A stretch of DNA of 64,000 nt, from the NCBI GenBank assembly GCA_964016885.1, contig OZ024740.1:55428001-55492000 (forward strand), written 5' to 3'. A program made the translations under genes and the position numbers. The DNA comes from Eledone cirrhosa (taxonomy: Eukaryota). Positions 1 to 29,734 of the stretch are shown in pieces. Each line of letters starts with the position of its first letter. The first letter of the stretch is position 1. The notes beneath the pieces were generated by a model. The model was not told the DNA's origin and searched no databases. It saw nothing but the letters and a program-made list of their open reading frames with translations.

Positions 1-1489
1 TGCTTCTGCGTTTGTGCCTTCTTACGACCTTTTGCCATCTCTCTCCCACCTCACACTCCATGTCTGATTCTGTGAGGTCGGGGAGGGGTACCAACTCCAC
101 TCTTTCACTTGTTGTTGTTGGTGATGTTTGCACTGGAGTCTCTGTTGCAGCTGCATTTGGTATTGCTGTTGTTGTTGTTAATATTTCCACTGCTGCTGCT
201 GTCTTTGATTTCCGTGGAGTGGGTATGGGTGCCACGGACCTATCGTTCCTGGTTGCCGCTTGTCCTGTTGCTGGTAGCCGTGGAACCGGATTCGGGAGGA
301 GGGGGGTTTTCTCCTTTCTCATGGTCTTCTCGTTGCAGAAGGCCCTGAGGTGAGTCTTCGATCCACAGCGAAAGCATTTCGGGCGTTTGCCCTCAACACT
401 TATGGGCAGTTGAGTGCCGTTATCGAAGTCTATCACATCCGGGATAGCTTCGATGCACTCCTGGTTGGTTTGGATTAGCATCTCAATGGAGGAGCCGACC
501 CAATCTTCTCTTACTTTTTTCTGTACTTGCAGTACAGTTGTTTTGTCCTCGATTCCGACGAGGACAGACGCGGCCAGCCAAGAAGGGGTCATTCCGGGGG
601 GGACGTGGGTCAGTTTGACCCTCACAATTTTTTGCCCACAGTAGGAGGGCACCAACACCATTTCCTCGCTCCTTAGGGTCACTACTGATTGGGCCTTTGC
701 CTCCTGGGGTGTGGCAAAAAGTACGTCTACGGTGGCGTATTTTTTGCCTCGGGTGATGTGCGTTTTCCTCTGCCACACAGACCCCAAGGCTTTTTGTATT
801 TGGGCCTCTGTGGCTCTTTCCACCCTACGGGATTTTGTACTTACTGTACGGTACGTGACCGTACAGTGCTCTTGGGTTTCGAAAAAATTTTTCGCTGCCT
901 TGCAGATTGCTCGGTGTCCGTTCTTTGTCACCATCTTCTTCGCTTCCTCTAATTCCTCATTTGTTATGAGGATTGTTTCCAGGTTTTTCGCAATACCTGC
1001 AAATGAGATTGGTTTTTCTCTGCTGTTGTTGTTGTCGTCAGAGCTGCTGGTACTTTTGTTGCTGCAGGTACTACGACTACTGCCTCCGCCGCTGTTGCTG
1101 TGGTTGTTGTTGGTGTTGCTGCTGCTAATGCTGTTGTTGTTTATGCTGCTGGTGATGCTGTTGCGGCTGCTACTGTTGTTTTCATTGTCACTGTTGCTGT
1201 TGTTATTACGGCTGCTACTGCTATTATTCCTGACGTCAGACGAATGAACTGGGTTTTCGTATTTCCCGCACACCTGTTTCGTCGCTGTCGTCGTCGTCGT
1301 GGAGAAACCTTGCACGCTTTGCACGAGACTTTTCTTTTCTTTCGTGGCTTGCGAAAGAGAAGGGAGGGAGAGAGACACATTTAAAGAAGGGAGGGAGAGA
1401 GACAATCTTCTCTCTGCTGTAGTGATGATTGAGGAAGAAGAAGACGGAATGAGTGGGAGTGACGTATGAAATTTCTTTTTGGTAGCCAT
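1..1489 (-). CDS. ORF1 (partial, cut by window edge) of Tx1 unit 0
   Basis: ATG GCT ACC AAA (MATKK) starts at 1489; colinear with ORF1 at 5450-7546. Confidence 0.8.
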   Translation of the reverse strand, partial: MATKKKFHTSLPLIPSSSSSIITTAERRLSLSLPSLNVSLSLPSLSQATKEKKSLVQSVQGFSTTTTTATKQVCGKYENPVHSSDVRNNSSSSRNNNSNSDNENNSSSRNSITSSINNNSISSSNTNNNHSNSGGGSSRSTCSNKSTSSSDDNNNSREKPISFAGIAKNLETILITNEELEEAKKMVTKNGHRAICKAAKNFFETQEHCTVTYRTVSTKSRRVERATEAQIQKALGSVWQRKTHITRGKKYATVDVLFATPQEAKAQSVVTLRSEEMVLVPSYCGQKIVRVKLTHVPPGMTPSWLAASVLVGIEDKTTVLQVQKKVREDWVGSSIEMLIQTNQECIEAIPDVIDFDNGTQLPISVEGKRPKCFRCGSKTHLRAFCNEKTMRKEKTPLLPNPVPRLPATGQAATRNDRSVAPIPTPRKSKTAAAVEILTTTTAIPNAAATETPVQTSPTTTSERVELVPLPDLTESDMECEVGERWQKVVRRHKRRS

Positions 1490-1702
1490 GTTTTTTTGTT
1501 TAAAATGAAATTTTGGGTACAAAACCCCAATAACTGGTTATTTAACCCCGAAGGGCCAAATAACGGACAGAAAGACCCCTCTCACGAGGAGGAGGGTGTC
1601 TTTATCAACAATTTGGTTCAAGTTTTAAACAATTTACAATTGTTTTAACGGTTAAAAATTACTATACCTTACAGAGCCGAGCCTCCGTCAACCATGGCAT
1701 TC
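1..1702 (-). mobile_element. Tx1/L1-clade non-LTR retrotransposon, array unit 0 (5' part only; continues beyond window edge)
   Basis: Near-identical to the 5'UTR and ORF1 5' part of the downstream units; the 5' end GAATGCCATGG abuts (AAT)10 at 1703-1732. Confidence 0.93.

Positions 1703-1732
<30 letters not shown>
1703..1732. repeat. (AAT)10 spacer / element tail between units 0 and A
   Basis: Pure AAT repeat between the 5' end of one unit and the 3' end (AATAAAGAAATC on minus) of the next. Confidence 0.97.
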
Positions 1733-1734
<2 letters not shown>

Positions 1735-1994
1735 TTTCTTTATTAACCACAAGGGTTTACATAAAGTAGACATTAAGGACAGTGCAGGACAATGCAGGAC
1801 GGTACAAATGGGCATTTCTGCGTGTAAAAAAACAAAAACAGAGGATGTAACAAAAATAACAATGAAAATAACAATGAAAAATTCCCCAATAGGGGGGAGA
1901 CTTCGGAGGGACATTTGTGGTGAAAGCCCAGTAAAAAGCCACAATGACCCTGACCACCAAGGCAAGTGCCCTCTCCCAGTTTTCCACCTTTAAT

Positions 1995-4900
1995 TTACAG
2001 ATATATACTCAGAGTAGGCCCATTCACTCGGGCCATTCTTGCTTCTCTCACCCATCTTTCAACAAAATGCTGGGAAGAGAGCACTTCCCTCTCTACTCTG
2101 ATTTTCCTTTTCAAATGAAATTTGAAAAAGTCAATCAGAGCATCACCGGAGAGGTAAGTGCTCGTCTTCAGCCCTTTCAAACGTGTCCACCATACTATCT
2201 CTTTCACCATGGCCACCAGGCAGATAAAAACTGCCTGCCCTTCCCGGCTAAAGGAGGAGGGCGGGGCAATCCTCACGATGGACTCAGATGATAGCCGGAT
2301 CCGTCCTAAACGCGACAGCAGGTGTTCGACATAAACCCACAAGTCAGCAATTTTCGGACACTGGACGAGTGCGTGCAGGACGGTTTCGTCGCCCTGCGCG
2401 CATCTCGGACATGCCCGGCTGACGGCACCTCCATGCCTGTAGAGTTTATCCCGAACTGGCAAGGCTCCTCGGTAGCACTGCCAGGCCAGAGATTTCTGGA
2501 AGTTGTCCATAGGCCCTGGCCCGAAAGTTCTTCCGAAGAGATTGGCTAGTTGATTTTCGTCGACGCCTAGAGTTTCCCCAAGTACGTCGTCGCTCTTCCC
2601 CTCCACTAATCCTCTATAGAACGCCGAGGTGGAATTTCCACCGATCACATTGCCCGATTGGTCGAGGGCTGTGAGTGCCTGAAGACATTCCAGTCTCCAG
2701 GCGCTCCCTCTCGGTCTTCGCTTGACCCAGGACTGCAGCTCCGTCAAGGAAACGAGCTGGGGAAACACGCGCCTAGCAAACGGCGACCACACCTGATCAC
2801 CGTCGAGGAAGAGGTGGAGATGTCGTAGCCTGAGCGCGTGCCTGCGCATCATCAGCCACGGCATGCCCAGCCCTCCACGTAGCGGGTGTTGACAACAGAT
2901 GGACCGCCTGACCATCGGAGCGCGTCCCTTCCACAAAAAGCGAAAGAGCAAACGCTCCAGCGCAGTCAGGCGAGGCTTAGGACAAGGTACGACGGTCAGA
3001 CGGTAGCAGATGACGGACGCGATGTACGCGTTAGCCACCTCCGCTCGACCTTTCAGGGATAGCTTCCTCTCCGCCCATTTCTGGGTGAGAGAAGCCACCC
3101 TGCTCGTCACCTCGTCCCAGTTTTTGTCCGTCTGGAGGTCCGGACCGAACCAGACCCCTAGCAATTTAACCGGTCCGTCCGTCCAGCGTCCGACGACGCT
3201 GTTGGACGGCATGGACCTGCCTCTCCAGGTGCCGAGCTGCAGGCCCACTGACTTTTCCTGGTTGATCATTGCTCCTGTCACCGCTTCGTATTCTCTTAGT
3301 GTAGTGCCGATCGCCTCGATGTGTTTGGCGCTCGACACCACTACGGTGACATCGTCCGCATATGCTGACACTGATCTTCCGCATCCTAGTTCGCGCGGGA
3401 CTCCCCTCAACGTCTCCAGTTTGTGCAGTAATGGCTCGAGAGTCAATACGTACAAGAGGGACGAGAGGGGACATCCTTGGCGGACCGAGCGCATGATGTT
3501 GAACGGTTCCGACAGGTGACCGTTCACTCTCACCACAGAGCAGATGTCGCTGTGCATGGCAGCGATCCAGCCTCTGAAGACGGGCCCAAAGCCAGCCGCC
3601 CTCAGGACTGCCGCTAGGTAACGATGGTCGACCCTATCGAAAGCTTTCGACTGATCTAAATTGATCAAGGACCCACCCGTGCCAGGTTCCCTAGCTACCC
3701 TCTCTACGATGTATCGCATGAGGTGGAGGTTGTCGTGGATGGATCTGTCGGGAATGGCGCATGTCTGCGCCTCTCCCACCAGACCACCAACGACAAGCGC
3801 CAACCTCTTTGCTAGCACCTTGGCCAAAATCTTAAACTCTGTGTTTAGCAGAGTTATGGGCCGGAAATTGTCTATGTTATCCCCCTTGTTCGGATCCTTT
3901 CTCAGCAGTGCCACCGCTCCTCGGCTCACAGAACTGGGAATTCTCCCGTTCTGTTGCCAGTTGCAGTAGACGTCCGCCAAGAGGCCTCCGAACAAGTCTG
4001 GCATCTGTACGTAAAGTTCATAGGGCAGACCATCCAAACCAGGCGATTTACCCCTTGTGCAGCCAGTCATTGCCTCCCTTACTTCAGCGGCTGTTATCGG
4101 CTTTTCGCAACACTTCGCCTCAGTGGCCGAGAGCCGCGGCAGTCCGTCGAGGTAGACACTAAAGTCCATCCCTCTACCCGGCCCACCGCTGCCCCCGAAC
4201 AGCTGAGCGAAGTGTCGCTGAAAAGCTTCACACATTTGCCCGGGATCGAGTAGCATGCCCCCGTCGTGGTCCACCAAAGACCGGATCGTGGCTTTGTTGC
4301 CACGACGCGCCTCCGCCACTCGGGCCCATTGAACGGCTTTCGTCCCCTCGTGTCTGAGAGCACGCACCCTTGCTCTGACAACGCAGCCTTCGTGCTTTGC
4401 ATTGAAGAATTGGTCAAGGGCCAATTTCGCCGCAAGCACGTCGGTCGCAATGCCTTTGCTAAGCGCCTCGTCTAATTTTCTAACTAGTTCTCCCTCTGCT
4501 CTATTTTTCTCTATTGCTAAAGCCTTACTAAATCTAATCGATTCTATTCTAATCGCTCTTTTCAGAGCAAACCACCACTTGTTGTTGACGATGGCCCCCG
4601 TCAACGCCCGCTTAACTAGTTCGCTAATCCGGTCTCTGTAGGCCTTGCGCGCTGGTAAGGACGCGTTTAGCTTCCAGTAGCCGGGTCCTCGTCTATGAAG
4701 CCTATCTAAGTCAAGCACACAGATCACGAATTTGTGGTCCGTGTAGCTGACTATCTTGAATTGTGGACAGCCTATGCTAGACCTATCTATTTCCCTACAA
4801 AATACTCTATCTAGATATGATCTGGATGACCCTATGCGGTTTGTCCAAGTCCACATTGGCACATTCGGGAAATCCAATCGGTACCTGTCAGACAGTTCAA

Positions 4901-5414
4901 AACGCCTGAGCAGGTTGGTGAGGCTCTTGCACCCTCCACCCCTATCGGCTAATCCCACACAGTCCCAGCGTGCATCTAAGATCCCGTTCCAGTCGCCCAC
5001 TAACACTAAAGAGCGCGACGTTCCAAGAAAGGTCTCCAGACGCCGGAAGAAATCAGGCCGCCCTGCTCCTGTCGGGGCATAGACGGCCACTAGCCTGAAA
5101 GCTTGCCCGTCTCCGCTGGTCACGTCCAGCACCACCAGCTTACCCTCTGGGTCCAGGAAGATGGCCCGTATGGCGAGATCCAAACCTCTCCGAAAAAGTA
5201 CAGCAACTCCTCCACCGGATCCAGGACGGCTGGGAGATGCGTACACATCGTAGCCGCCGAAGATCGGTGCGAAGGCCCGTGCTTCGGAGATTCTGGTCTC
5301 GCTGATGGCCACTACATCTATGTTTAGTGACCTGAGGTCGTTGAGCAGGTGACCCTGCTTCCATGACGACCCCAAGCCACGCGCATTTATGCTGCCTATT
5401 CTGAGTGAGGTCAT
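1995..5414 (-). CDS. ORF2 polyprotein: APE endonuclease + reverse transcriptase + C-terminal CCHC
   Basis: APE motifs SINARG, ISET, GDWN, SYLDR, TDH; RT motifs PGLDG, FRPITLLN, DQSKAFD, VRQGCPLS, YADD; CPRC..ETVLHALVQC; GPGYWKLN typical of L1/Tx1. Confidence 0.96.
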   Translation of the reverse strand: MTSLRIGSINARGLGSSWKQGHLLNDLRSLNIDVVAISETRISEARAFAPIFGGYDVYASPSRPGSGGGVAVLFRRGLDLAIRAIFLDPEGKLVVLDVTSGDGQAFRLVAVYAPTGAGRPDFFRRLETFLGTSRSLVLVGDWNGILDARWDCVGLADRGGGCKSLTNLLRRFELSDRYRLDFPNVPMWTWTNRIGSSRSYLDRVFCREIDRSSIGCPQFKIVSYTDHKFVICVLDLDRLHRRGPGYWKLNASLPARKAYRDRISELVKRALTGAIVNNKWWFALKRAIRIESIRFSKALAIEKNRAEGELVRKLDEALSKGIATDVLAAKLALDQFFNAKHEGCVVRARVRALRHEGTKAVQWARVAEARRGNKATIRSLVDHDGGMLLDPGQMCEAFQRHFAQLFGGSGGPGRGMDFSVYLDGLPRLSATEAKCCEKPITAAEVREAMTGCTRGKSPGLDGLPYELYVQMPDLFGGLLADVYCNWQQNGRIPSSVSRGAVALLRKDPNKGDNIDNFRPITLLNTEFKILAKVLAKRLALVVGGLVGEAQTCAIPDRSIHDNLHLMRYIVERVAREPGTGGSLINLDQSKAFDRVDHRYLAAVLRAAGFGPVFRGWIAAMHSDICSVVRVNGHLSEPFNIMRSVRQGCPLSSLLYVLTLEPLLHKLETLRGVPRELGCGRSVSAYADDVTVVVSSAKHIEAIGTTLREYEAVTGAMINQEKSVGLQLGTWRGRSMPSNSVVGRWTDGPVKLLGVWFGPDLQTDKNWDEVTSRVASLTQKWAERKLSLKGRAEVANAYIASVICYRLTVVPCPKPRLTALERLLFRFLWKGRAPMVRRSICCQHPLRGGLGMPWLMMRRHALRLRHLHLFLDGDQVWSPFARRVFPQLVSLTELQSWVKRRPRGSAWRLECLQALTALDQSGNVIGGNSTSAFYRGLVEGKSDDVLGETLGVDENQLANLFGRTFGPGPMDNFQKSLAWQCYRGALPVRDKLYRHGGAVSRACPRCAQGDETVLHALVQCPKIADLWVYVEHLLSRLGRIRLSSESIVRIAPPSSFSREGQAVFICLVAMVKEIVWWTRLKGLKTSTYLSGDALIDFFKFHLKRKIRVEREVLSSQHFVERWVREARMARVNGPTLSIYL

Positions 5415-5449
5415 GTTTAAAATAGAGTGGAAAAGATGGGAAAGACCAC

Positions 5450-7546
5450 TTACCGTACTTTTGGTAGAGGAGGGATGGTTTTTACATCCCTTTTCACTTG
5501 ATCGTCTGGTGAAGGGACCGTTGAATCGTCCCTTCGGCTGGTCGTCGGCTCTTCTAAGAGAATGTCTGAGTATACTCTTCGATTGATGGTTCCTCCTAGG
5601 TCCCTGAAATCACCAACTGCGTTGGGGAATTTCGTTTTAATGTTTGTGTATTGTTTCTGTGCTATTTTTAGCAGTCTTATGTTAGTTGGCGTTTTGATTG
5701 GTGCTGGTATTATGTAGTCCTGTTGTGAAATGTCTGTGTGTTCAATTATGTAAGTCATTAGTTTCTTGTTGTGTGTGTTTATTGCCGTGCATTTGTTTTT
5801 CTGGGGGTGGGGTGTGGTTCTGCTATTTTCTTGTCGTTGTTGCTGGGTGTGTGTGTTTTGTTGTTGTGTTTGCGATGTTGGTGCTTGTGGTGGTGGTGTT
5901 GAAGGTGTTGTTGGCGGTGGGGTTGTCGCCGGTGGTGATGGTGGTGCTAGTGTGGGTGGTGATGGTGTTGGTGTTGTTGCTGCTGTGGGTCTCTTTGCAG
6001 TAGACTTTACCCTTTTCTCATTTCTTTCCTCCCTTTTCAAAGGCGACGATGCGCTGCTTCTGCGTTTGTGCCTTCTTGCGACCTTTTGCCATCCCTCTCC
6101 CACCTCACACTCCATGTCTGATTCTGTGAGGTCGGGGAGGGGTACCAGCTCCACTCTTTCACTTGTTGTTGTTGGTGATGTTTGCACTGGAGTCTCTGTT
6201 GCAGCTGCATTTGGTATTGCTGTTGTTGTTGTTAATATTTCCACTGCTGCTGCTGTTTTTGATTTCCGTGGCGTGGGTATGGGTGCCACGGACCTATCGT
6301 TCCTGGTTGCCGCTTGTCCTGTTGCTGGTAGCCGTGGAGCCGGATTCGGAAGGAGGGGGGTTTTCTCCTTTCTCAGGGTCTTCTCGTTGCAGAAGGCCCT
6401 GAGGTGAGTCTTCGATCCACAGCGAAAGCATTTCGGGCGTTTGCCCTCAACACTTATGGGAAGTTGAGTGCCGTTATCGAAGTCTATCACATCCGGGATA
6501 GCTTCGATGCACTCCTGGTTGGTTTGGATTAGCATCTCAATGGAGGAGCCGACCCAATCTTCTCTTACTTTTTTCTGTACTTGCAGTACAGTTGTTTTGT
6601 CCTCGATTCCGACGAGGACAGACGCGGCCAGCCAAGAAGGGGTCATTCCGGGGGGGACGTGGGTCAGTTTGACCCTCACAATTTTTTGCCCACAGTAGGA
6701 GGGCACCAACACCATTTCCTCGCTCCTTAGGGTCACTACTGATTGGGCCTTTGCCTCCTGGGGTGTGGCAAAAAGTACGTCTACGGTGGCGTATTTTTTG
6801 CCTCGGGTGATGTGCGTTTTCCTCTGCCACACAGACCCCAAGGCTTTTTGTATTTGGGCCTCTGTGGCTCTTTCCACCCTACGGGATTTTGTACTTACTG
6901 TACGGTACGTGACCGTACAGTGCTCTTGGGTTTCGAAAAAATTTTTCGCTGCTTTGCAGATTGCTCGGTGTCCGTTCTTTGTCACCATCTTCTTCGCTTC
7001 CTCTAATTCCTCATTTGTTATGAGGATTGTTTCCAAATTTTTCGCAATACCTGCAAATGAGATTGGTTTTTCTCTGCTGTTGTTGTTGTCGTCAGAGCTG
7101 CTGGTACTTTTGTTGTTGCTGCAGGTACTACGACTACTGCCTCCGCCGCTGTTGCTGTGGTTGTTGTTGGTGTTGCTGCTGCTAATGCTGTTGTTGTTTA
7201 TGCTGCTGGTGATGCTGTTGCGGCTGCTACTGTTGTTTTCATTGTCACTGTTGCTGTTGTTATTACGGCTGCTACTGCTATTATTCCTGACGTCAGACGA
7301 ATGAACTGGGTTTTCGTATTTCCCGCACACCTGTTTCGTCGCTGTCGTCGTCGTCGTGGAGAAACCTTGCACGCTTTGCACGAGACTTTTCTTTTCTTTC
7401 GTCACTTGCGAAAGAGAAGGGAGGGAGAGAGACACATTTAAAGAAGGGAGGGAGAGAGACAATCTTCTCTCTGCAGTAGTGATGATTGAGGAAGAAGAAG
7501 ACGGAATGAGTGGGAGTGACGTATGAAATTTCTTTTTCGTAGCCAT
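5450..7546 (-). CDS. ORF1 nucleic-acid-binding protein (RRM-like region, CCHC knuckle, low-complexity N/S and P/T tracts)
   Basis: 698 aa ORF upstream of ORF2; CFRCGSKTHLRAFC knuckle; WQKVARRHKRR basic motif. Confidence 0.9.
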   Translation of the reverse strand: MATKKKFHTSLPLIPSSSSSIITTAERRLSLSLPSLNVSLSLPSLSQVTKEKKSLVQSVQGFSTTTTTATKQVCGKYENPVHSSDVRNNSSSSRNNNSNSDNENNSSSRNSITSSINNNSISSSNTNNNHSNSGGGSSRSTCSNNKSTSSSDDNNNSREKPISFAGIAKNLETILITNEELEEAKKMVTKNGHRAICKAAKNFFETQEHCTVTYRTVSTKSRRVERATEAQIQKALGSVWQRKTHITRGKKYATVDVLFATPQEAKAQSVVTLRSEEMVLVPSYCGQKIVRVKLTHVPPGMTPSWLAASVLVGIEDKTTVLQVQKKVREDWVGSSIEMLIQTNQECIEAIPDVIDFDNGTQLPISVEGKRPKCFRCGSKTHLRAFCNEKTLRKEKTPLLPNPAPRLPATGQAATRNDRSVAPIPTPRKSKTAAAVEILTTTTAIPNAAATETPVQTSPTTTSERVELVPLPDLTESDMECEVGEGWQKVARRHKRRSSASSPLKREERNEKRVKSTAKRPTAATTPTPSPPTLAPPSPPATTPPPTTPSTPPPQAPTSQTQQQNTHTQQQRQENSRTTPHPQKNKCTAINTHNKKLMTYIIEHTDISQQDYIIPAPIKTPTNIRLLKIAQKQYTNIKTKFPNAVGDFRDLGGTINRRVYSDILLEEPTTSRRDDSTVPSPDDQVKRDVKTIPPLPKVR

Positions 7547-7761
7547 GTTGTTTTTTGTTTAAAATGAAATTTTGGGTACAAAACCCCAATAACTGATTAT
7601 TTAACCCCGAAGGGCCAAATAACGGACAGAAAGACCCCTCTCACGAGGAGGAGGGTGTCTTTATCAACAATTTGGTTCAAGTTTTAAACAATTTACAATT
7701 GTTTTAACGGTTAAAAATTACTATACCTTACAGAGCCGAGCCTCCGTCAACCATGGCATTC

Positions 7762-7782
7762 AATAATAATAATAATAATAAT
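7762..7782. repeat. (AAT)7 spacer between units A and B
   Basis: Read directly from sequence. Confidence 0.97.
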
Positions 7783-8044
7783 GATTTCTTTATTAACCAC
7801 AAGGGTTTACATAAAGTAGACATTAAGGACAGTGCAGGACAATACAGGACGGTACAAATGGGCATTTCTGCGTGTAAAAAAACAAAAACAGAGGATGTAA
7901 CAAAAATAACAATGAAAATAACAATGAAAAATTCCCCAATAGGGGGGAGACTTCGGAGGGACATTTGTGGAGAAAGCCCAGTAAAAAGCCACAATGACCC
8001 TGACCACCAAGGCAAGTGCCCTCTCCCAGTTTTCCACCTTTAGT

Positions 8045-11464: not shown

Positions 11465-11499
11465 GTTTAAAATAGAGTGGAAAAGATGGGAAAGACCAC

Positions 11500-14504: not shown

Positions 14505-14647
14505 GTACATCACAAGTCTAAACACTAAAGATGCATGTGTGAATATGTATGTTCTTTCTTGAACATGGCGGACCTTGTTGTCTCTTGAGGTCACTGGTTG
14601 TGACTTGGTGATAAGTTGTATGAACATAGAGCAAGATAAATGCAACT

Positions 14648-14648
<1 letters not shown>
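13834..14648 (+). mobile_element. 5'-truncated R4/Dong-clade (REL endonuclease) non-LTR element, copy 1, followed by a (TAA)n tail at 14649-14700
   Basis: DLKSETEGLIISAQDQ then, after a frameshift, CRVC..ETIDHIISMC, RHD, RPDI..LIDMSVP..K..KY, IPVVVGALG; 3'UTR ends in TAA repeats; preceded by (AAT)8. Confidence 0.9.
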
Positions 14649-14702
<54 letters not shown>

Positions 14703-14962
14703 TTTCTTTATTAACCACAAGGGTTTACATAAAGTAGACATTAAGGACAGTGCAGGACAATGCAGGACGGTACAAATGGGCATTTCTGCGTGTAAAAAAA
14801 CAAAAACAGAGGATGTAACAAAAATAACAATGAAAATAACAATGAAAAATTCCCCAATAGGGGGGAGACTTCGGAGGGACATTTGTGGAGAAAGCCCAGT
14901 AAAAAGCCACAATGACCCTGACCACCAAGGCAAGTGCCCTCTCCCAGTTTTCCACCTTTAGT

Positions 14963-17900: not shown

Positions 17901-18382
17901 CCTCCACCCCTATCCGCTAATCCCACACAGTCCCAGCGTGCATCTAAGATCCCGTTCCAGTCGCCCACTAACACTAAAGAGCGGGACGTTCCAAGAAAGG
18001 TCTCCAGACGCCGGAAGAAATCAGGCCGCCCTGCTGCTGTCGGGGCATAGACGGCCACTAGCCTGAAAGCTTGCCCGTCTCCGCTGGTCACGTCCAGCAC
18101 CACCAGCTTACCCTCTGGGTCCAGGAAGATGGCCCGTATGGCGAGATCCAAACCTCTCCGAAAAAGCACAGCCACTCCTCCACCCGATCCAGGACGGCTG
18201 GGAGATGCGTACACATCGTAGCCGCCGAAGATCGGTGCGAAGGCCCGTGCTTCGGAGATTCTGGTCTCGCTGATGGCCACTACATCTATGTTTAGTGACC
18301 TGAGGTCGTTGAGCAGGTGACCCTGCTTCCATGACGACCCCAAGCCACGCGCATTTATGCTGCCTATTCTGAGTGAGGTCAT
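14963..18382 (-). CDS. ORF2 (APE-RT-CCHC), unit C
   Basis: 1139 aa open frame, catalytic motifs intact. Confidence 0.95.
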   Translation of the reverse strand: MTSLRIGSINARGLGSSWKQGHLLNDLRSLNIDVVAISETRISEARAFAPIFGGYDVYASPSRPGSGGGVAVLFRRGLDLAIRAIFLDPEGKLVVLDVTSGDGQAFRLVAVYAPTAAGRPDFFRRLETFLGTSRSLVLVGDWNGILDARWDCVGLADRGGGCKSLTNLLRRFELSDRYRLDFPNVPMWTWTNRIGSSRSYLDRVFCREIDRSSIGCPQFKIVSYTDHKFVICVLDLDRLHRRGPGYWKLNASLPARKAYRDRISELVKRALTGAIVNNKWWFALKRAIRIESIRFSKALAIEKNRAEGELVRKLDEALSKGIATDVLAAKLALDQFFNAKHEGCVVRARVRALRHEGTKAVQWARVAEARRGNKATIRSLVDHDGRMLLDPGQMCEAFQRHFAQLFGGSGGPGRGMDFSVYLDGLPRLSATEAKCCEKPITAAEVREAMTGCTRGKSPGLDGLPYELYVQMPDLFGGLLADVYCNWQQNGRIPNSVSRGAVALLRKDPNKGDNIDNFRPITLLNTEFKILAKVLAKRLALVVGGLVGEAQTCAIPDRSIHDNLHLMRYIVERVAREPGTGGSLINLDQSKAFDRVDHRYLAAVLRAAGFGPVFRGWIAAMHSDICSVVRVNGHLSEPLNLMRSVRQGCPLSSLLYVLTLEPLLHKLETLRGVPRELGCGRSVSAYADDVTVVVSNAKHIEAIGTTLREYEAVTGAMINQEKSVGLQLGTWRGRSMPSNSVVGRWTDGPVKLLGVWFGPDLQTDKNWDEVTSRVASLTQKWAERKLSLKGRAEVANAYIASVICYRLTVVTCPKPRLTALERLLFRFLWKGRAPMVRRSICCQHPLRGGLGMPWLMMRRHALRLRHLHLFLDGDQVWSPFARRVFPQLVSLTELQSWVKRRPRGSAWRLECLQALTALDQSGNVIGGNSTSAFYRGLVEGKSDDVLGETLGVDENQLANLFGRTFGPGPMDNFQKSLAWQCYRGALPVRDKLYRHGGAVSRACPRCAQGDETVLHALVQCPKIADLWVYVEHLLSRLGRIQLSSESIVRIAPPSSFSREGQAVFICLVAMAKEIVWWTRLKGLKTSTYLFGDALIDFFKFHLKRKIRVEKEVLSSQHFVERWVREARMARVNGPTLSIYL

Positions 18383-18417
18383 GTTTAAAATAGAGTGGAA
18401 AAGATGGGAAAGACCAC

Positions 18418-20508
18418 TTACCGTACTTTTGGTAGAGGAGGGATGGTTTTTACATCCCTTTTCACTTGATCGTCTGGTGAAGGGACCGTTGAATCGTCCC
18501 TTCGGCTGGTCGTCGGCTCTTCTAAGAGAATGTCTGAGTATACTCTTCGATTGATGGTTCCTCCTAGGTCCCTGAAATCACCAACTGCGTTGGGGAATTT
18601 CGTTTTAATGTTTGTGTATTGTTTCTGTGCTATTTTTAGCAGTCTTATGTTAGTTGGCGTTTTGATTGGTGCTGGTATTATGTAGTCCTGTTGTGAAATG
18701 TCTGTGTGTTCAATTATGTAAGTCATTAGTTTCTTGTTGTGTGTGTTTATTGCCGTGCATTTGTTTTTCTGGGGGTGGGGTGTGGTTCTGCTATTTTCTT
18801 GTCGTTGTTGCTGGGTGTGTGTGTTTTGTTGTTGTGTTTGCGATGTTGGTGCCTGTGGTGGTGGTGTTGAAGGTGTTGTTGGCGGTGGGGTTGTCGCCGG
18901 TGGTGATGGTGGTGCTGGTGTGGGTGGTGATGGTGTTGGTGGTGTTGCTGCTGTGGGTCTCTTTGCAGTAGACTTTACCCTTTTCTCATTTCTTTCCTCC
19001 CTTTTCAAAGGCGACGATGCGCTGCTTCTGCGTTTGTGCCTTCTTGCGACCTTTTGCCATCCCTCTCCCACCTCACACTCCATGTCTGATTCTGTAAGGT
19101 CGGGGAGGGGTACCAGCTCCACTCTTTCACTTGTTGTTGTTGGTGATGTTTGCACTGGAGTCTCTGTTGCAGCTGCATTTGGTATTGCTGTTGTTGTTGT
19201 TAATATTTCCACTGCTGCTGCTGTCTTTGATTTCCGTGGAGTGGGTATGGGTGCCACGGACCTATCGTTCCTGGTTGCCGCTTGTTCTGTTGCTGGTAGC
19301 CGTGGAGCCGGATTCGGAAGGAGGGGGGTTTTCTCCTTTCTCAGGGTCTTCTCGTTGCAGAAGGCCCTGAGGTGAGTCTTCGATCCACAGCGAAAGCATT
19401 TCGGGCGTTTGCCCTCAACACTTATGGGCAGTTGAGTGCCGTTATCGAAGTCTATCACATCCGGGATAGCTTCGATGCACTCCTGGTTGGTTTGGATTAG
19501 CATCTCAATGGAGGAGCCGACCCAATCTTCTCTTACTTTTTTCTGTACTTGCAGTACAGTTGTTTTGTCCTCGATTCCGACGAGGACAGACGCGGCCAGC
19601 CAAGAAGGGGTCATTCCGGGGGGGACGTGGGTCAGTTTGACCCTCACAATTTTTTGCCCGCAGTAGGAGGGCACCAACACCATTTCCTCGCTCCTTAGGG
19701 TCACTACTGATTGGGCCTTTGCCTCCTGGGGTGTGGCAAAAAGTACGTCTACGGTGGCGTATTTTTTGCCTCGGGTGATGTGCGTTTTCCTCTGCCACAC
19801 AGACCCCAAGGCTTTTTGTATTTGGGCCTCTGTGGCTCTTTCCACCCTACGGGATTTTGTACTTAATGTACGGTACGTGACCGTACAGTGCTCTTGGGTT
19901 TCGAAAAAATTTTTCGCTGCCTTGCAGATTGCTCGGTGTCCGTTCTTTGTCACCATCTTCTTCGCTTTCTCTAATTCCTCATTTGTTATGAGGATTGTTT
20001 CCAAGTTTTTCGCAATACCTGCAAATGAGATTGGTTTTTCTCTGCTGTTGTTGTTGTCGTCAGAGCTGCTGGTACTTTTGTTGCTGCAGGTACTACGACT
20101 ACTGCCTCCGCCGCTGTTGCTGTGGTTGTTGTTGGTGTTGCTGCTGCTAATGCTGTTGTTGTTTATGCTGCTGGTGATGCTGTTGCGGCTGCTACTGTTG
20201 TTTTCATTGTCACTGTTGCTGTTGTTATTACGGCTGCTACTGCTATTATTCCTGACGTCAGACGAATGAACTGGGTTTTCGTATTTCCCGCACACCTGTT
20301 TCGTCGCTGTCGTCGTCGTGGAGAAACCTTGCACGCTTTGCACGAGACTTTTCTTTTCTTTCGTCACTTGCGAAAGAGAAGGGAGGGAGAGAGACACATT
20401 TAAAGAAGGGAGGGAGAGAGACAATCTTCTCTCTGCTGTAGTGATGATTGAGGAAGAAGAAGACGGAATGAGTGGGAGTGACGTATGAAATTTCTTTTTC
20501 GTAGCCAT
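18418..20508 (-). CDS. ORF1, unit C
   Basis: 696 aa; two in-frame triplet deletions relative to unit A. Confidence 0.9.
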   Translation of the reverse strand: MATKKKFHTSLPLIPSSSSSIITTAERRLSLSLPSLNVSLSLPSLSQVTKEKKSLVQSVQGFSTTTTATKQVCGKYENPVHSSDVRNNSSSSRNNNSNSDNENNSSSRNSITSSINNNSISSSNTNNNHSNSGGGSSRSTCSNKSTSSSDDNNNSREKPISFAGIAKNLETILITNEELEKAKKMVTKNGHRAICKAAKNFFETQEHCTVTYRTLSTKSRRVERATEAQIQKALGSVWQRKTHITRGKKYATVDVLFATPQEAKAQSVVTLRSEEMVLVPSYCGQKIVRVKLTHVPPGMTPSWLAASVLVGIEDKTTVLQVQKKVREDWVGSSIEMLIQTNQECIEAIPDVIDFDNGTQLPISVEGKRPKCFRCGSKTHLRAFCNEKTLRKEKTPLLPNPAPRLPATEQAATRNDRSVAPIPTPRKSKTAAAVEILTTTTAIPNAAATETPVQTSPTTTSERVELVPLPDLTESDMECEVGEGWQKVARRHKRRSSASSPLKREERNEKRVKSTAKRPTAATPPTPSPPTPAPPSPPATTPPPTTPSTPPPQAPTSQTQQQNTHTQQQRQENSRTTPHPQKNKCTAINTHNKKLMTYIIEHTDISQQDYIIPAPIKTPTNIRLLKIAQKQYTNIKTKFPNAVGDFRDLGGTINRRVYSDILLEEPTTSRRDDSTVPSPDDQVKRDVKTIPPLPKVR

Positions 20509-20747
20509 GTTGTTTTTTGTTTAAAATGAAATTTTGGGTACAAAACCCCAATAACTGGTTATTTAACCCCGAAGGGCCAAATAACAGACAGAAAGACCCC
20601 TCTCACGAGGAGGAGGGTGTCTTTATCAACAATTTGGTTCAAGTTTTAAACAATTTACAATTGTTTTAACGGTTAAAAATTACTATACCTTACAGAGCCG
20701 AGCCTCCGTCAACCATGGCATTCAATAATAATAATAATAATAATAAT

Positions 20748-21561
20748 GATCTGAAATCGGAGACTGAAGGACTGATTATATCGGCACAAGATCAGTGTCT
20801 GCCAACAAAAAATTACCAACCAACATAATAAAAAATGGGTGCAGCCCATTATGCCGTGTATGCAAAAAACAATCAGAGACCATTGACCATATAATTTCAA
20901 TGTGCAGTCCTATAGCTCCAACCGAATACCTAAACAGGCATGACAGAGCTGCACAATACATACATTGGATAATGTGTAAGCATTTTGACCTGCCCCATCA
21001 AAAGAATTGGTGGGAGCATCAACCACCTCCCATACTTGAAAAAGATCACATCTCAATCTTGTGGAACTTTAGCATCCAAACAGACCGAAAAATAGATGCA
21101 AATAGACCTGATATAATATTGAAAGACTTTCAAAAGAGGGTATGCCTGCTAATTGATATGTCTGTTCCAATAGACAAGAATGTATCTATAAAAACATTAA
21201 AAAAATTGAGCAAGTATAAGGACCTGGAGATAGAAATTGGAAAAATGTGGAAATTGAGAACTAAAACAATACCAGTGGTTGTAGGCGCTCTGGGAATGAT
21301 ACCTAAGGGGTCTAATGATTACGTATCGCAAATCCCAGGAAACCCGCGTATAGGAGAAATACAAAAGATAGTACTAATGGGAACTGCCCATATACTAAGG
21401 AAGATTCTGTCAATATAAGTACATCACAAGTCTAAACACTAAAGATGCATGTGTGAATATGTATGTTCTTTCTTGAACATGGCGGACCTTGTTGTCTCTT
21501 GAGGTCACTGGTTGTGACTTGGTGATAAGTTGTATGAACATAGAGCAAGATAAATGCAACT

Positions 21562-21562
<1 letters not shown>
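20748..21562 (+). mobile_element. 5'-truncated R4/Dong-clade element, copy 2 (matches copy 1), (TAA)n tail 21563-21608
   Basis: Same 815 bp length, truncation point, frameshift and 207 aa translation as 13834-14648. Confidence 0.9.
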
Positions 21563-21610
<48 letters not shown>

Positions 21611-21858
21611 TTTCTTTATTAACCACAAGGGTTTACATAAAGTAGACATTAAGGACAGTGCAGGACAATGCAGGACGGTACAAATGGGCATTTCTGCGTG
21701 TAAAAAACAAAAACAGAGGATGTAACAAAAAATAACAATGAAAAATTCCCCAATAGGGGGGAGACTTCGGAGGGACATTTGTGGAGAAAGCCCAGTAAAA
21801 AGCCACAATGACCCTGACCACCAAGGCAAGTGCCCTCTCCCAGTTTTCCACCTTTAGT

Positions 21859-24800
21859 TTACAGATATATACTCAGAGTCGGCCCATTCACTCGGGCCAT
21901 TCTTGCTTCTCTCACCCATCTTTCAACAAAATGCTGGGAAGAGAGCACTTCCTTCTCTACTCTGATTTTCCTTTTCAAATGAAATTTGAAAAAGTCAATC
22001 AGAGCATCACCGAAGAGGTAAGTGCTCGTCTTCAGCCCTTTCAAACGTGTCCACCATACTATCTCTTTCGCCATGGCCACCAGACAGATAAAAACTGCCT
22101 GCCCTTCCCGGCTAAAGGAGGAGGGCGGGGCAATCCTCACGATAGACTCAGATGATAGCTGGATCCGTCCTAAACGCGACAGCAGGTGTTCGACATAAAC
22201 CCACAAGTCAGCAATTTTCGGACACTGGACGAGTGCGTGCAGGACGGTTTCGTCGCCCTGCGCGCATCTCGGACATGCCCGGCTGACGGCACCTCCATGC
22301 CTGTAGAGTTTATCCCGAACTGGCAAGGCTCCTCGGTAGCACTGCCAGGCCAGAGATTTCTGGAAGTTGTCCATAGGCCCCGGCCCGAAAGTTCTTCCGA
22401 AGAGATTGGCTAGTTGATTTTCGTCGACGCCTAGAGTTTCCCCAAGTACGTCGTCGCTCTTCCCCTCCACTAATCCTCTATAGAACGCCGAGGTGGAGTT
22501 TCCACCGATCACATTGCCCGATTGGTCGAGGGCTGTGAGCGCCTGAAGACATTCCAGTCTCCAGGCGCTCCCTCTCGGTCTTCGCTTGACCCAGGACTGC
22601 AGCTCCGTCAAGGAAACGAGCTGGGGAAAAACGCGTCTAGCAAACGGCGACCACACCTGATCACCGTCGAGGAAGAGGTGGAGATGTCGTAGCCTGAGCG
22701 CGTGCCTGCGCATCATCAGCCACGGCATGCCCAGCCCTCCACGTAGCGGGTGTTGACAACAGATGGACCGCCTGACCATCGGAGCACGTCCCTTCCACAA
22801 AAAGCGAAAGAGCAAACGCTCCAGCGCAGTCAGGCGAGGCTTAGGACAAGGTACGACGGTTAGGCGGTAGCAGATGACAGACGCGATGTACGCGTTAGCC
22901 ACCTCCGCTCGACCTTTCAGGGATAGCTTCCTCTCCGCCCATTTCTGGGTGAGAGAAGCCACCCTGCTCGTCACCTCGTCCCAGTTTTTGTCCGTCTGGA
23001 GGTCCGGACCGAACCAGACCCCTAGCAATTTAACCGGTCCGTCCGTCCAGCGCCCGACGACGCTGTTGGACGGCATGGACCTGCCTCTCCAGGTGCCGAG
23101 CTGCAGGCCCACTGACTTTTCCTGGTTGATCATTGCTCCTGTCACCGCTTCGTATTCTCTTAGTGTAGTGCCGATCGCCTCGATGTGTTTGGCGTTCGAC
23201 ACCACTACGGTGACATCGTCGGCATATGCTGACACGGATCTTCCGCATCCTAGTTCGCGCGGGACTCCCCTCAACGTCTCCAGTTTGTGCAGTAATGGCT
23301 CGAGAGTCAATACGTACAAGAGGGACGAGAGGGGACATCCTTGGCGGACCGAGCGCATGATGTTGAACGGTTCCGACAGGTGACCGTTTACTCTCACCAC
23401 AGAGCAGATGTCGCTGTGCATGGCAGCGATCCAGCCTCTGAAGACGGGCCCAAAGCCAGCCGCCCTCAGGACTGCCGCTAGGTAACGATGGTCGACCCTA
23501 TCGAAAGCTTTCGACTGATCTAAATTGATCAAGGACCCACCCGTGCCAGGTTCCCTAGCTACCCTCTCTACGATGTATCGCATGAGGTGGAGGTTGTCGT
23601 GGATGGATCTGTCGGGAATGGCGCATGTCTGCGCCTCTCCCACCAGACCACCAACGACAAGCGCCAACCTCTTTGCTAGCACCTTGGCCAAAATCTTAAA
23701 CTCTGTGTTTAGCAGAGTTATGGGCCGGAAATTGTCTATGTTATCCCCCTTGTTCGGATCCTTTCTCAGCAGTGCCACCGCTCCTCGGCTCACAGAACTG
23801 GGAATTCTCCCGTTCTGTTGCCAGTTGCAGTAGACGTCCGCCAAGAGGCCTCCGAACAAGTCTGGCATCTGTACGTAAAGTTCATAGGGCAGACCATCCA
23901 AACCAGGCGATTTACCCCTTGTGCAGCCAGTCATTGCCTCCCTTACTTCAGCGGCTGTTATCGGCTTTTCGCAACACTTCGCCTCAGTGGCCGAGAGCCG
24001 CGGCAGTCCGTCGAGGTAGACACTAAAGTCCATCCCTCTACCCGGCCCACCGCTGCCCCCGAACAGCTGAGCGAAGTGTCGCTGAAAAGCTTCACACATT
24101 TGCCCGGGATCGAGTAGCATGCGCCCGTCGTGGTCCACCAAAGACCGGATCGTGGCTTTGTTGCCACGACGCGCCTCCGCCACTCGGGCCCATTGAACGG
24201 CTTTCGTCCCCTCGTGTCTGAGAGCACGCACCCTAGCTCTGACAACGCAGCCTTCGTGCTTTGCATTGAAGAATTGGTCAAGGGCCAATTTCGCCGCAAG
24301 CACGTCGGTCGCAATGCCTTTGCTAAGCGCCTCGTCTAATTTTCTAACTAGTTCTCCCTCTGCTCTATTTTTCTCTATTGCTAAAGCCTTACTAAACCTA
24401 ATCGATTCTATTCTAATCGCTCTTTTCAGAGCAAACCACCACTTGTTGTTGACGATGGCCCCCGTCAACGCCCGCTTAACTAGTTCGCTAATCCGGTCTC
24501 TGTAGGCCTTGCGCGCTGGTAAGGACGCGTTTAGCTTCCAGTAGCCGGGTCCTCGTCTATGAAGCCTATCTAAGTCAAGCACACAGGTCACGAATTTGTG
24601 GTCCGTGTAGCTGACTATCTTGAATTGTGGACAGCCTATGCTAGACCTATCTATTTCCCTACAAAATACTCTATCTAGATATGATCTGGATGACCCTATG
24701 CGGTTTGTCCAAGTCCACATTGGCACATTCGGGAAATCCAATCGGTACCTGTCAGACAGTTCAAAACGCCTGAGCAGGTTGGTGAGGCTCTTGCACCCTC

Positions 24801-25278
24801 CACCCCTATCCGCTAATCCCACACAGTCCCAGCGTGCATCTAAGATCCCGTTCCAGTCGCCCACTAACACTAAAGAGCGGGACGTTCCAAGAAAGGTCTC
24901 CAGACGCCGGAAGAAATCAGGCCGCCCTGCTCCTGTCGGGGCATAGACGGCCACTAGCCTGAAAGCTTGCCCGTCTCCGCTGGTCACGTCCAGCACCACC
25001 AGCTTACCCTCTGGGTCCAGGAAGATGGCCCGTATGGCGAGATCCAAACCTCTCCGAAAAAGCACAGCAACTCCTCCACCGGATCCAGGACGGCTGGGAG
25101 ATGCGTACACATCGTAGCCGCCGAAGATCGGTGCGAAGGCCCGTGCTTCGGAGATTCTGGTCTCGCTGATGGCCACTACATCTATGTTTAGTGACCTGAG
25201 GTCGTTGAGCAGGTGACCCTGCTTCCATGACGACCCCAAGCCACGCGCATTTATGCTGCCTATTCTGAGTGAGGTCAT
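21859..25278 (-). CDS. ORF2 (APE-RT-CCHC), unit D
   Basis: 1139 aa open frame, motifs intact. Confidence 0.95.
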   Translation of the reverse strand: MTSLRIGSINARGLGSSWKQGHLLNDLRSLNIDVVAISETRISEARAFAPIFGGYDVYASPSRPGSGGGVAVLFRRGLDLAIRAIFLDPEGKLVVLDVTSGDGQAFRLVAVYAPTGAGRPDFFRRLETFLGTSRSLVLVGDWNGILDARWDCVGLADRGGGCKSLTNLLRRFELSDRYRLDFPNVPMWTWTNRIGSSRSYLDRVFCREIDRSSIGCPQFKIVSYTDHKFVTCVLDLDRLHRRGPGYWKLNASLPARKAYRDRISELVKRALTGAIVNNKWWFALKRAIRIESIRFSKALAIEKNRAEGELVRKLDEALSKGIATDVLAAKLALDQFFNAKHEGCVVRARVRALRHEGTKAVQWARVAEARRGNKATIRSLVDHDGRMLLDPGQMCEAFQRHFAQLFGGSGGPGRGMDFSVYLDGLPRLSATEAKCCEKPITAAEVREAMTGCTRGKSPGLDGLPYELYVQMPDLFGGLLADVYCNWQQNGRIPSSVSRGAVALLRKDPNKGDNIDNFRPITLLNTEFKILAKVLAKRLALVVGGLVGEAQTCAIPDRSIHDNLHLMRYIVERVAREPGTGGSLINLDQSKAFDRVDHRYLAAVLRAAGFGPVFRGWIAAMHSDICSVVRVNGHLSEPFNIMRSVRQGCPLSSLLYVLTLEPLLHKLETLRGVPRELGCGRSVSAYADDVTVVVSNAKHIEAIGTTLREYEAVTGAMINQEKSVGLQLGTWRGRSMPSNSVVGRWTDGPVKLLGVWFGPDLQTDKNWDEVTSRVASLTQKWAERKLSLKGRAEVANAYIASVICYRLTVVPCPKPRLTALERLLFRFLWKGRAPMVRRSICCQHPLRGGLGMPWLMMRRHALRLRHLHLFLDGDQVWSPFARRVFPQLVSLTELQSWVKRRPRGSAWRLECLQALTALDQSGNVIGGNSTSAFYRGLVEGKSDDVLGETLGVDENQLANLFGRTFGPGPMDNFQKSLAWQCYRGALPVRDKLYRHGGAVSRACPRCAQGDETVLHALVQCPKIADLWVYVEHLLSRLGRIQLSSESIVRIAPPSSFSREGQAVFICLVAMAKEIVWWTRLKGLKTSTYLFGDALIDFFKFHLKRKIRVEKEVLSSQHFVERWVREARMARVNGPTLSIYL

Positions 25279-25313
25279 GTTTAAAATAGAGTGGAAAAGA
25301 TGGGAAAGACCAC

Positions 25314-27411
25314 TTACCGTACTTTTGGTAGAGGAGGGATGGTTTTTACATCCCTTTTCACTTGATCGTCTGGTGAAGGGACCGTTGAATCGTCCCTTCG
25401 GCTGGTCGTCGGCTCTTCTAAGAGAATGTCTGAATATACTCTTCGATTAATGGTTCCTCCTAGGTCCCTGAAATCACCAACTGCGTTGGGGAATTTCGTT
25501 TTAATGTTTGTGTATTGTTTCTGTGCTATTTTTAGCAGTCTTATGTTAGTTGGCGTTTTGATTGGTGCTGGTATTATGTAGTCCTGTTGTGAAATGTCTG
25601 TGTGTTCAATTATGTAAGTCATTAGTTTCTTGTTGTGTGTGTTTATTGCCGTGCATTTGTTTTTCTGGGGGTGGGGTGTGGTTCTGCTATTTTCTTGTCG
25701 TTGTTGCTGGGTGTGTGTGTTTTGTTGTTGTGTTTGCGATGTTGGTGCTTGTGGTGGTGGTGTTGAAGGTGTTGTTGGCGGTGGGGTTGTCGCCGGTGGT
25801 GATGGTGGTGCTGGTGTGGGTGGTGATGGTGTTGGTGGTGTTGCTGCTGTGGGTCTCTTTGCAGTAGACTTTACCCTTTTCTCATTTCTTTCCTCCCTTT
25901 TCAAAGGCGACGATGCGCTGCTTCTGCGTTTGTGCCTTCTTACGACCTTTTGCCATCCCTCTCCCACCTCACACTCCATGTCTGATTCTGTAAGGTCGGG
26001 GAGGGGTACCAGCTCCACTCTTTCACTTGTTGTTGTTGATGATGTTTGCACTGGAGTCTCTGTTGCAGCTGCATTTGGTATTGCTGTTGTTGTTGTTAAT
26101 ATTTCCACTGCTGCTGCTGTCTTTGATTTCCGTGGAGTGGGTATGGGTGCCACGGACCTATCGTTCCTGGTTGCCGCTTGTCCTGTTGCTGGTAGCCGTG
26201 GAACCGGATTCGGGAGGAGGGGGGTTTTCTCCTTTCTCATGGTCTTCTCGTTGCAGAAGGCCCTGAGGTGAGTCTTCGATCCACTGCGAAAGCATTTCGG
26301 GCGTTTGCCCTCAACACTTATGGGCAGTTGAGTGCCGTTATCGAAGTCTATCACATCCGGGATAGCTTCGATGCACTCCTGGTTGGTTTGGATTAGCATC
26401 TCAATGGAGGAGCCGACCCAATCTTCTCTTACTTTTTTCTGTACTTGCAGTACAGTTGTTTTGTCCTCGATTCCGACGAGGACAGACGCGGCCAGCCAAG
26501 AAGGGGTCATTCCGGGGGGGACGTGGGTCAGTTTGACCCTCACAATTTTTTGCCCACAGTAGGAGGGCACCAACACCATTTCCTCGCTCCTTAGGGTCAC
26601 TACTGATTGGGCCTTTGCCTCCTGAGGTGTGGCAAAAAGTACGTCTACGGTGGCGTATTTTTTTGCCTCGGGTGATGTGCGTTTTCCTCTGCCACACAGA
26701 CCCCAAGGCTTTTTGTATTTGGGCCTCTGTGGCTCTTTCCACCCTACGGGATTTTGTACTTACTGTACGGTACGTGACCGTACAGTGCTCTTGGGTTTCG
26801 AAAAAATTTTTCGCTGCCTTGCAGATTGCTCGGTGTCCGTTCTTTGTCACCATCTTCTTCGCTTCCTCTAATTCCTCATTTGTTATGAGGATTGTTTCCA
26901 GGTTTTTCGCAATACCTGCAAATGAGATTGGTTTTTCTCTGCTGTTGTTGTTGTCGTCAGAGCTGCTGGTACTTTTGTTGTTGCTGCAGGTACTACGACT
27001 ACTGCCTCCGCCGCTGTTGCTGTGGTTGTTGTTGGTGTTGCTGCTGCTAATGCTGTTGTTGTTTATGCTGCTGGTGATGCTGTTGCGGCTGCTACTGTTG
27101 TTTTCATTGTCACTGTTGCTGTTGTTATTACGGCTGCTACTGCTATTATTCCTGACGTCAGACGAATGAACTGGGTTTTCGTATTTCCCGCACACCTGTT
27201 TCGTCGCTGTCGTCGTCGTCGTGGAGAAACCTTGCACGCTTTGCACGAGACTTTTCTTTTCTTTCGTCACTTGCGAAAGAGAAGGGAGGGAGAGAGACAC
27301 ATTTAAAGAAGGGAGGGAGAGAGACAATCTTCTCTCTGCTGTAGTGATGATTGAGGAAGAAGAAGACGGAATGAGTGAGAGTGACGTATGAAATTTCTTT
27401 TTGGTAGCCAT
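25314..27411 (-). pseudogene. ORF1, unit D, with +1 frameshift and CCHC Cys>Ser
   Basis: T7 instead of T6 at 26658-26664 splits the ORF; CFRCG>CFRSG near 26285. Confidence 0.78.
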
Positions 27412-27645
27412 GTTTTTTTGTTTAAAATGAAATTTTGGGTACAAAACCCCAATAACTGGTTATTTAACCCCGAAGGGCCAAATAACGGACAGAAAGACCC
27501 CTCTCACGAGGAGGAGGGTGTCTTTATCAACAATTTGGTTCAAGTTTTAAACAATTTACAATTGTTTTAACGGTTAAAAATTACTATACATTACAGAGCC
27601 GAGCCTCCGTCAACCATGGCATTCAATAATAATAATAATAATAAT

Positions 27646-29730: not shown

Positions 29731-29734
29731 CATA

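Follow-up and report, generated by a model that had tools for sequence, protein, structure and literature searches.

The window analysed here, a stretch of 64,000 nucleotides (64 kb) of Eledone cirrhosa (GenBank assembly GCA_964016885.1, contig OZ024740.1, positions 55,428,001 to 55,492,000 of the forward strand), carries five units of a long interspersed nuclear element (LINE) of the L1 group, which lie on the minus strand, head to tail, on an ATT repeat. On balance, we favour the view that they form an array of a young, high-copy L1/Tx1-type LINE that likely targets ATT, and that this array was likely seeded at the ATT tail of a short interspersed nuclear element (SINE) and likely expanded by local DNA copying, including that of a joint bearing an insert termed D. 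There is precedent for Tx1-like LINEs that target microsatellites, for tandem stacking where the target is renewed and for expansion by exchange; the details that appear to be new are the likely ATT target, the use of the tract by a Dong-like clade as well, the marked duplicated joint and a possible SINE partnership. For microsatellite-bound Tx1 elements, (ATT)n would likely be a new target, at which they have arrived in parallel with Dong, using a different class of endonuclease and the opposite strand. The array would also show the passage from transposon to satellite at an early stage, with the duplicated dead insert as a built-in marker.

The preliminary description, made from the sequence alone, had announced at least five near-identical units of ~6.03 kb with four open copies of open reading frame 2 (ORF2), each unit being complete at the same 5' nucleotide and abutting (ATT)7-10, and all of this was borne out. 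The units U1 to U5 (Table 1) have one common 5' nucleotide (1702, 7761, 13809, 20723 and 27624) and adjoin (ATT)10, 7, 8, 8 and 7, respectively (5/5); none of the five is 5'-truncated. The complete units U2-U5 measure 6,016-6,029 bp, with a pairwise divergence of 0.57-1.06% (6 pairs). ORF2 (1139 amino acids) is open in 4/4 complete units, and ORF1 is open in U2-U4 (696-698 amino acids) and frameshifted in U5. The further claim that the units are joined only by (ATT)n applies to two of the four internal joints, U1/U2 and U2/U3, which are pure (ATT)7-10; at U3/U4 and U4/U5, (AAT)8 is followed by an 816-bp insert and then by (AAT)17 or (AAT)15, and the period there is ~6.9 kb. The right end of the array is the ATT tail of the SINE at 27646-27860, and its left end lies beyond the window edge.

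Since tandem joints cannot tell a target from a tail, independent 5' flanks were used for this question. The young flanks of this kind in the window are both ATT (2/2): that of U5, which is the tail of the SINE, and that of element B, a sister LINE preceded by (ATT)42. Tracts of at least four ATT/AAT units occupy 264 of the 36,355 non-array bases (0.73%), the flanks of B included. What stands of the (ATT)n-specific family proposed earlier is a preference, backed by two flanks in this window, where such tracts are scarce; it is likely that the LINE family targets the (ATT)n/(AAT)n microsatellite. Element B has a 5' untranslated region (UTR) that cannot be aligned with that of U2, an ORF1 of 32-64% amino acid identity in pieces, and a 3' UTR ~170 nt shorter, without the terminal hairpin described below. 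Its 5' part likely reflects a swap of 5' modules between subfamilies. It sits among three Dong-like 3' ends (E1-E3); that E1 is a long target-site duplication of B was ruled out, as E1-E3 differ pairwise.

The growth of the array is best followed at the insert. The two copies, D1 and D2, are equal at 816/816 positions and have the same frameshift. U4 and U5, which are alike at 12/13 informative sites among U2-U5, differ at 34 positions and 6 indels, while D1 and D2 differ at none; the probability of no difference in 816 bp at the U4/U5 divergence is 0.01-0.03, which fits recent copying or conversion. Four sequencing runs were compared over 20700-30700. In run X1, for which 40 of 647 difference rows were shown, 9 of them in D, the family majority is unlike D at all 9 substitution rows within D. 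The D letter at 20873 has a depth of 33 of 229,785 in this run, and of its eight flank bins the five lowest have a depth of 11-18 and the others of 24, 28 and 771. D is a single old insertion with very few copies; as it nevertheless occurs here twice unchanged, one joint would have been copied, not made twice. In addition, U5 and U1 alone agree at 7/11 informative sites in the first 1.7 kb; one of these, the U1/U5 allele at 26240, is absent from the read pools of all four runs, X1 having only the other letter. On these sequence comparisons, self-insertion alone does not appear sufficient for array growth. The earlier proposal that the array was extended by insertion at its own ends can be retained for its seeding, which is likely, but would not be enough by itself, given the same dead D at two joints and a U1/U5 allele outside the read pool.

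We propose that the apurinic/apyrimidinic endonuclease (APE) domain of the LINE would nick the (AAT)n strand and that the (AUU)n end of the LINE RNA would pair with the nicked primer, so that each insertion would leave ATT on both sides and renew the target. Repeated LINE insertion into the SINE ATT tail would likely have seeded the array; a Dong-like element would have entered this tract on one occasion, oriented the other way, and unequal exchange or gene conversion would then have copied the D-bearing joint. The closest fit is the two-step model of McGurk and Barbash, with same-site insertion followed by unequal exchange or conversion (PMC5932611; here as elsewhere, papers are cited for the sections of them that were covered). 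In the Drosophila R1 array and the tandems of transposable elements described there, a double insertion at a renewed target likewise precedes unequal exchange; the R1 spacer is a fixed 33-nt ribosomal DNA duplication, whereas the spacer of this array is a microsatellite that varies in length and is used by a second clade too.

Several points weigh against the favoured reading and lend something to its alternatives. Only two independent 5' flanks are available, both from this window, where a long 5' ATT tract is absent from the older relics and from most copies of the SINE. Together with the ATT end of the SINE, this would suit a scheme in which ATT is a 3' tail and not a target, one or two copies having landed by chance at the SINE tail before a satellite-like DNA expansion. 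We regard this as unlikely, since element B cannot have supplied the (ATT)42 in front of it as a tail, private substitutions number 13-30 per unit, and the pooled 5' ends of the SINE family are, as a weak indication, ATT-like in run X4 (18 contigs, agreement 0.54). Concerning the exchange itself, a single crossover between U3 and U5 as sole cause of U4 was ruled out, the 5' 1.5 kb of U4 mismatching U3 at 17 substitutions in 1500 columns, contrary to one simple crossover. Furthermore, 10 of 55 site pairs are incompatible, all via two sites, so that recurrent mutation could stand in for recombination, and two further alleles common to U1 and U5 reach 2-3% of the pool, where they may stem from a dispersed sub-lineage. 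The copy number given below is also rough and takes in copies down to 90% identity.

D is located on the 3' side of U4 and of its sister U5, as would also be expected from 3' transduction, which is the main rival. The array would then have grown at the RNA level only, by successive ATT insertions or 5'-to-3' template jumps, and D would have been carried twice from an ATT-D-ATT read-through source. Template jumping is a known mechanism for R2, a jump at RNA 5' ends would account for the five complete heads, and the two inserts have the same (AAT)8 at their end. It is odd for a single source locus, however, that U4 and U5 have diverged while the D copies have not; the few-copy depth of the private D letter in X1 indicates that there is no large transduced family, and 5'-truncated copies, absent here, are usual in non-LTR (non-long terminal repeat) tandems that arose by insertion (PMC5932611). 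We hold this rival to be possible, with a chance well short of even. A further point against is that no read or contig was shown across any joint, the AAT tracts being skipped in the read layout. The array, or its two D joints, might accordingly be an assembly artefact in which dispersed copies or haplotypes were joined at ATT tracts; the exact identity of D1 and D2 is as expected from a repeated path, and the window letters at 26240 and 26285 have no depth in X1. Such an artefact is nonetheless very unlikely: tract length differs from joint to joint, the units have private variants, the window letters at 27378 (U5) and 20873 (D) do occur in X1 at low depth, and a 3,269-nt X1 contig equals 27827-30700 without a difference, with the proviso that X1 may be the source sample and not independent.

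The abundance of the family was evaluated from a restriction-site-associated DNA (RAD) run, in which reads start on SphI sites and end on AATT sites, the enzymes being inferred. At ORF2 sites, read starts amount to 9,730-38,710 molecules, whereas for the flank site 29040 the bin depth implies ~7-11 pairs; this suggests about a thousand ORF2 copies at >=90% identity, a rough estimate uncorrected for fragment-size bias. The 3-8-fold excess of 3' over 5' depth was not read as a rate of truncation, since it is inflated by B-type copies, whose ORF1 is a different one. The ORF1 region is found in one 1,516-nt contig of run X6, which bears another organism label, with 15 differences (~99% identity). 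As an observation apart, ten runs with other organism labels (X5-X14) contain a fraction of 0.20-0.52 of the words found in the 10-kb stretch compared, as would fit close relatives or recent spread; no RNA run is listed as carrying the sequence. With this high copy number, nothing points to the centromeric or subtelomeric role that had been raised at first. A domesticated structural array comparable to HeT-A/TART or SART/TRAS would agree with the head-to-tail polarity, the intact ORF2s and a far array end outside the window; it is highly improbable given the family's abundance, an ordinary flank rich in transposable elements, composed of SINEs and of Penelope-like and Dong-like pieces with no telomeric repeat listed in the window, and an unrelated clade that is stacked on ATT in the same manner 11 kb away.

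The LINE unit has a two-ORF layout, the 698-amino-acid ORF1 ending 35 nt upstream of ORF2. ORF2 matches the Pfam families Exo_endo_phos, RVT_1 and zf-RVT, corresponding to an N-terminal APE, a reverse transcriptase (RT) and a C-terminal zinc motif, and its catalytic motifs line up with those of human L1 ORF2p. It scores 326 bits with phmmer against Xenopus Tx1L and 180 bits against human L1 ORF2p, the latter in a different database, and BLASTP gives 29% identity to Tx1L over 980 columns. One CCHC motif is directly visible in ORF1, whose core is placed by Atlas near zf-CCHC (0.93) and RBD_ZCCHC3 (0.90), with no such match in Pfam; an MBD domain (Pfam E 0.005, below the cut-off) was set aside. 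Among named homologues of ORF2, that of Argonauta hians is the nearest (69%, with 59% of the query covered), which points to an octopod host. In a quick RT tree, the family, Argonauta and 12 unnamed relatives form their own clade (100) outside the Tx1L clade (99); its 56 rows comprise 47 of 120 listed proteins, 8 of 80 loci and the query, with one further locus dropped as short and without Kibi, Koshi, Keno or mammalian L1, and support is from the Shimodaira-Hasegawa-like approximate likelihood ratio test (SH-aLRT) only. The Tx1/L1 identity given at first can thus be refined: sequence comparison supports an L1-group, Tx1-like family that is nearer to Tx1 than to mammalian L1, and strict Tx1 membership can be called no more than possible, as the tree does not nest it with Xenopus Tx1L. 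A metagenome scan with the family alignment returned 80 loci, none close (best segments 21-36%) and none informative on flanks, the cluster look-up of relatives at 40-44% gave no name beyond one 'hypothetical protein', and Rfam at gathering thresholds had 0 matches over the 64 kb, hence no small nuclear RNA head or known ribozyme. The sister group (P0003-P0067) is a large unnamed clade at 38-48% identity, almost entirely from ENA/JGI assemblies, in clusters of up to 732 members. The APE hairpin loop is known to shape target choice; in ORF2 of U2 (residues ~189-202) it is gapless against human L1 and two residues shorter than in Tx1L. Among the young elements of O. vulgaris, L1-Tx1 accounts for 13 families and 421 insertions, and Dong-R4 for 5 families and 1129 insertions (PMC13282606).

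By its sequence, D is the end of an R2-group element. D and E have a C-terminal CCHC motif and a restriction-like endonuclease, and the full-length relative P0227 matches only R2 structures; the D family extends further upstream in contigs of runs X4 and X6. We take D, and E1-E3, to be presumably Dong/R4-like from their motifs, the matches listed including no named Dong sequence. Besides these motifs, the label of D rests on its TAA context, the TAA microsatellite being the published target of Dong (PMC3812793), with TAA also in the Dong 5' flank of PMC3774820. On their sense strands, both LINEs (U and B) read ATT and all five Dong-like pieces read AAT. E1-E3 (38830-39027 and 44891-45911, minus strand) constitute a second microsatellite pile-up, with stacked 3' ends, AAT tracts between them and 41% amino acid identity to D.

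Comparable systems are found in several lineages. Kibi and Koshi, which target TC and TTC, and the crocodilian Tx1 elements (PMC4494074, PMC3812793) are likewise L1-group LINEs of the APE type tied to a microsatellite; the targets of this set are (TC)n, (TTC)n, (TTCC)n and (TTTC)n, in contrast to (ATT)n here. A target-specific Tx1 family has been defined as one in which >20% of copies are flanked by one repeat type (PMC4494074). Dong, DongAg and DongBg of the R4 clade (PMC3812793) are also associated with a TAA microsatellite, and D and E1-E3 resemble members of this group; in contrast to the main LINE unit, to which it is unrelated, Dong has a restriction-like endonuclease and lies on the opposite strand (AAT on sense). 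Stacking of site-specific elements at their target is known for the tandem SINEU-3 (PMC4494074) and for Utopia (PMC4640811), whose targets are a Mariner element and U2 genes, the sections covered describing no full-length 6-kb five-unit array. The literature searched contained no ATT-targeting Tx1 family, no octopus LINE array and no Tx1 partner for an octopus SINE, and the same holds for the sections covered of PMC4758252, PMC4824008 and PMC4640811; this search did not extend to Repbase and Dfam, which may already contain the family.

The 3' end of the LINE suggests a relationship with the adjacent SINE. When the terminal 22 nt of the unit are compared with the window at 127,956 positions, scores of at least 16 occur only at the four unit ends, at the point where an old Tx1 relic has its 3' end (18) and at two SINE 3' ends (17 and 16); there are 11 matches at score 15, one of which is a third SINE end. 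The SINE thus has 17/22 terminal nucleotides in common with the LINE unit. A CUUGU loop with a 4-bp stem is common to the young LINE, the relic and the SINE, the stem sequence differing among them. In seven aligned rows, 82% of cells pair, 3/4 pairs change on both sides, and the covariation score is reached by 4/500 shuffles, a figure that is not a probability, as the structure was drawn from these same rows, five of which are one SINE family. The hairpin occurs in the predicted folds of both LINE ends and is missing from the two SINE ends folded; folding z of the 5' 130 nt and of four 3' ends is not significant (-1.5 to +1.3). Element B is entirely without this 3' end. A 20-letter 3'-end pattern was found in 5 bacterial stretches of genome contigs, taken as chance, and in 0 viral contigs.

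Two Tx1 families and this SINE, which we take to be presumably tRNA-Deu/Nin-like from its motif, are therefore presented as a candidate stringent pair of a SINE and an L1-clade LINE on their terminal sequences. Pooled 5' flanks of the SINE family (loose ends behind 27856) are ATT-like on the sense strand in X4 and no more than AT-rich in X24, which hints weakly at a target common to SINE and LINE. It can be tentatively hypothesised, with more doubt than confidence, that an octopod Tx1-type lineage targets (ATT)n, drives the dominant octopus SINE and has its RNA recognised not by poly(A) but by the CUUGU hairpin together with an (AUU)n end; ATT tracts would then be common landing pads on which LINE, SINE and Dong-like elements pile up, on opposite strands, to become the seeds of satellite-like arrays. 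tRNA-Core and tRNA-Deu dominate octopus SINEs (PMC8967140). If the hairpin lead is true, a partner LINE would be named for the SINEs, which account for 11.6% of the O. vulgaris genome (PMC13282606). The pair would then also depart from the rule that tails common to a SINE and an L1-clade element are rare, only three such SINEs, from maize/sorghum and Chlamydomonas, being reported in PMC3747384. In those pairs (ZmSINE2/3 with LINE1-1_ZM, and SINEX-3_CR with L1-1_CR; PMC3747384) an L1-clade LINE and a SINE similarly have a common 3' end, with a hairpin in maize; they belong to plants and green algae and have longer common tails, whereas the candidate partnership here is in an animal and involves ~22 nt and an ATT end.

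Table 1. Coordinates of the array, its joints and inserts, and the neighbouring elements within the window.
Feature	Position	Strand	Remarks
U1, 5' 1.7 kb of L1/Tx1-type LINE (5' UTR and ORF1 start)	1-1702	-	exits window; nearest unit U5 (10 differences in 1702)
(AAT)10, joint U1/U2	1703-1732		(ATT)10 on LINE sense strand
U2, full-length LINE, 6029 bp	1733-7761	-	ORF1 7546-5450 (698 amino acids, one CCHC knuckle); ORF2 5414-1995 (1139 amino acids, APE-RT-zf)
U2 3'-terminal 4-bp stem with CUUGU loop	1745-1757	-	identical in U3-U5
(AAT)7, joint U2/U3	7762-7782
U3, full-length, 6027 bp	7783-13809	-	ORF1 13596-11500, ORF2 11464-8045, both open
(AAT)8	13810-13833		U3 side of D1
D1, 816 bp, R2-group (presumably Dong/R4-like) 3' end	13834-14649	+	5'-truncated, frameshifted; CCHC and part of restriction-like endonuclease, 3' UTR
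(AAT)17	14650-14700		between D1 and U4
U4, full-length, 6023 bp	14701-20723	-	ORF1 20508-18418, ORF2 18382-14963, both open
(AAT)8	20724-20747		U4 side of D2
D2	20748-21563	+	816/816 positions equal to D1
(AAT)15	21564-21608		between D2 and U5
U5, full-length, 6016 bp	21609-27624	-	ORF2 25278-21859 open; ORF1 frameshifted
(AAT)7, SINE tail	27625-27645		likely founding target
High-copy SINE	27646-27860	-	3' end with CUUGU-loop motif 27658-27670
Old decayed Tx1-type relic, ~65% nt identity to U	27884-29742	-	3' end 27905-27917: same loop, different fully paired stem
E1, 5'-truncated 3' end, second Dong-like family	38860-39027	-	(AAT)10 tail
(ATT)42, one interruption	39028-39153		5' flank of element B
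Element B, sister LINE	39154-44855	+	ORF2 region 93.6% nt identity to U2; broken frames; ATT-rich tract both sides
E2 and E3, two more 3' pieces, second Dong-like family	44891-45911	-	(AAT)8 between; E1-E3 differ at 8-15 positions per pair

Other elements of the window are mostly decayed. A second old Tx1-type relic lies at 35257-37309 (minus strand), with ~67% nucleotide identity to U2 in the RT region and no 3' end found. The pieces at 47000-48520 (plus strand), 52000-54580 (minus) and 57900-58420 (minus), whose ORFs had no Pfam match among those tested, are presumably Penelope-like, judging from their motifs. One Penelope-like piece is bracketed by a 249-bp direct repeat (50654-50902 and 54775-55018, 93.6% identity), and a 281-bp inverted repeat (56597-56877 and 58418-58698, 98.9% identity) lies around a Penelope-like fragment. 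Palindromic blocks resembling miniature inverted-repeat transposable elements occur at 55285-55746, 55868-56578 and 61220-61448.

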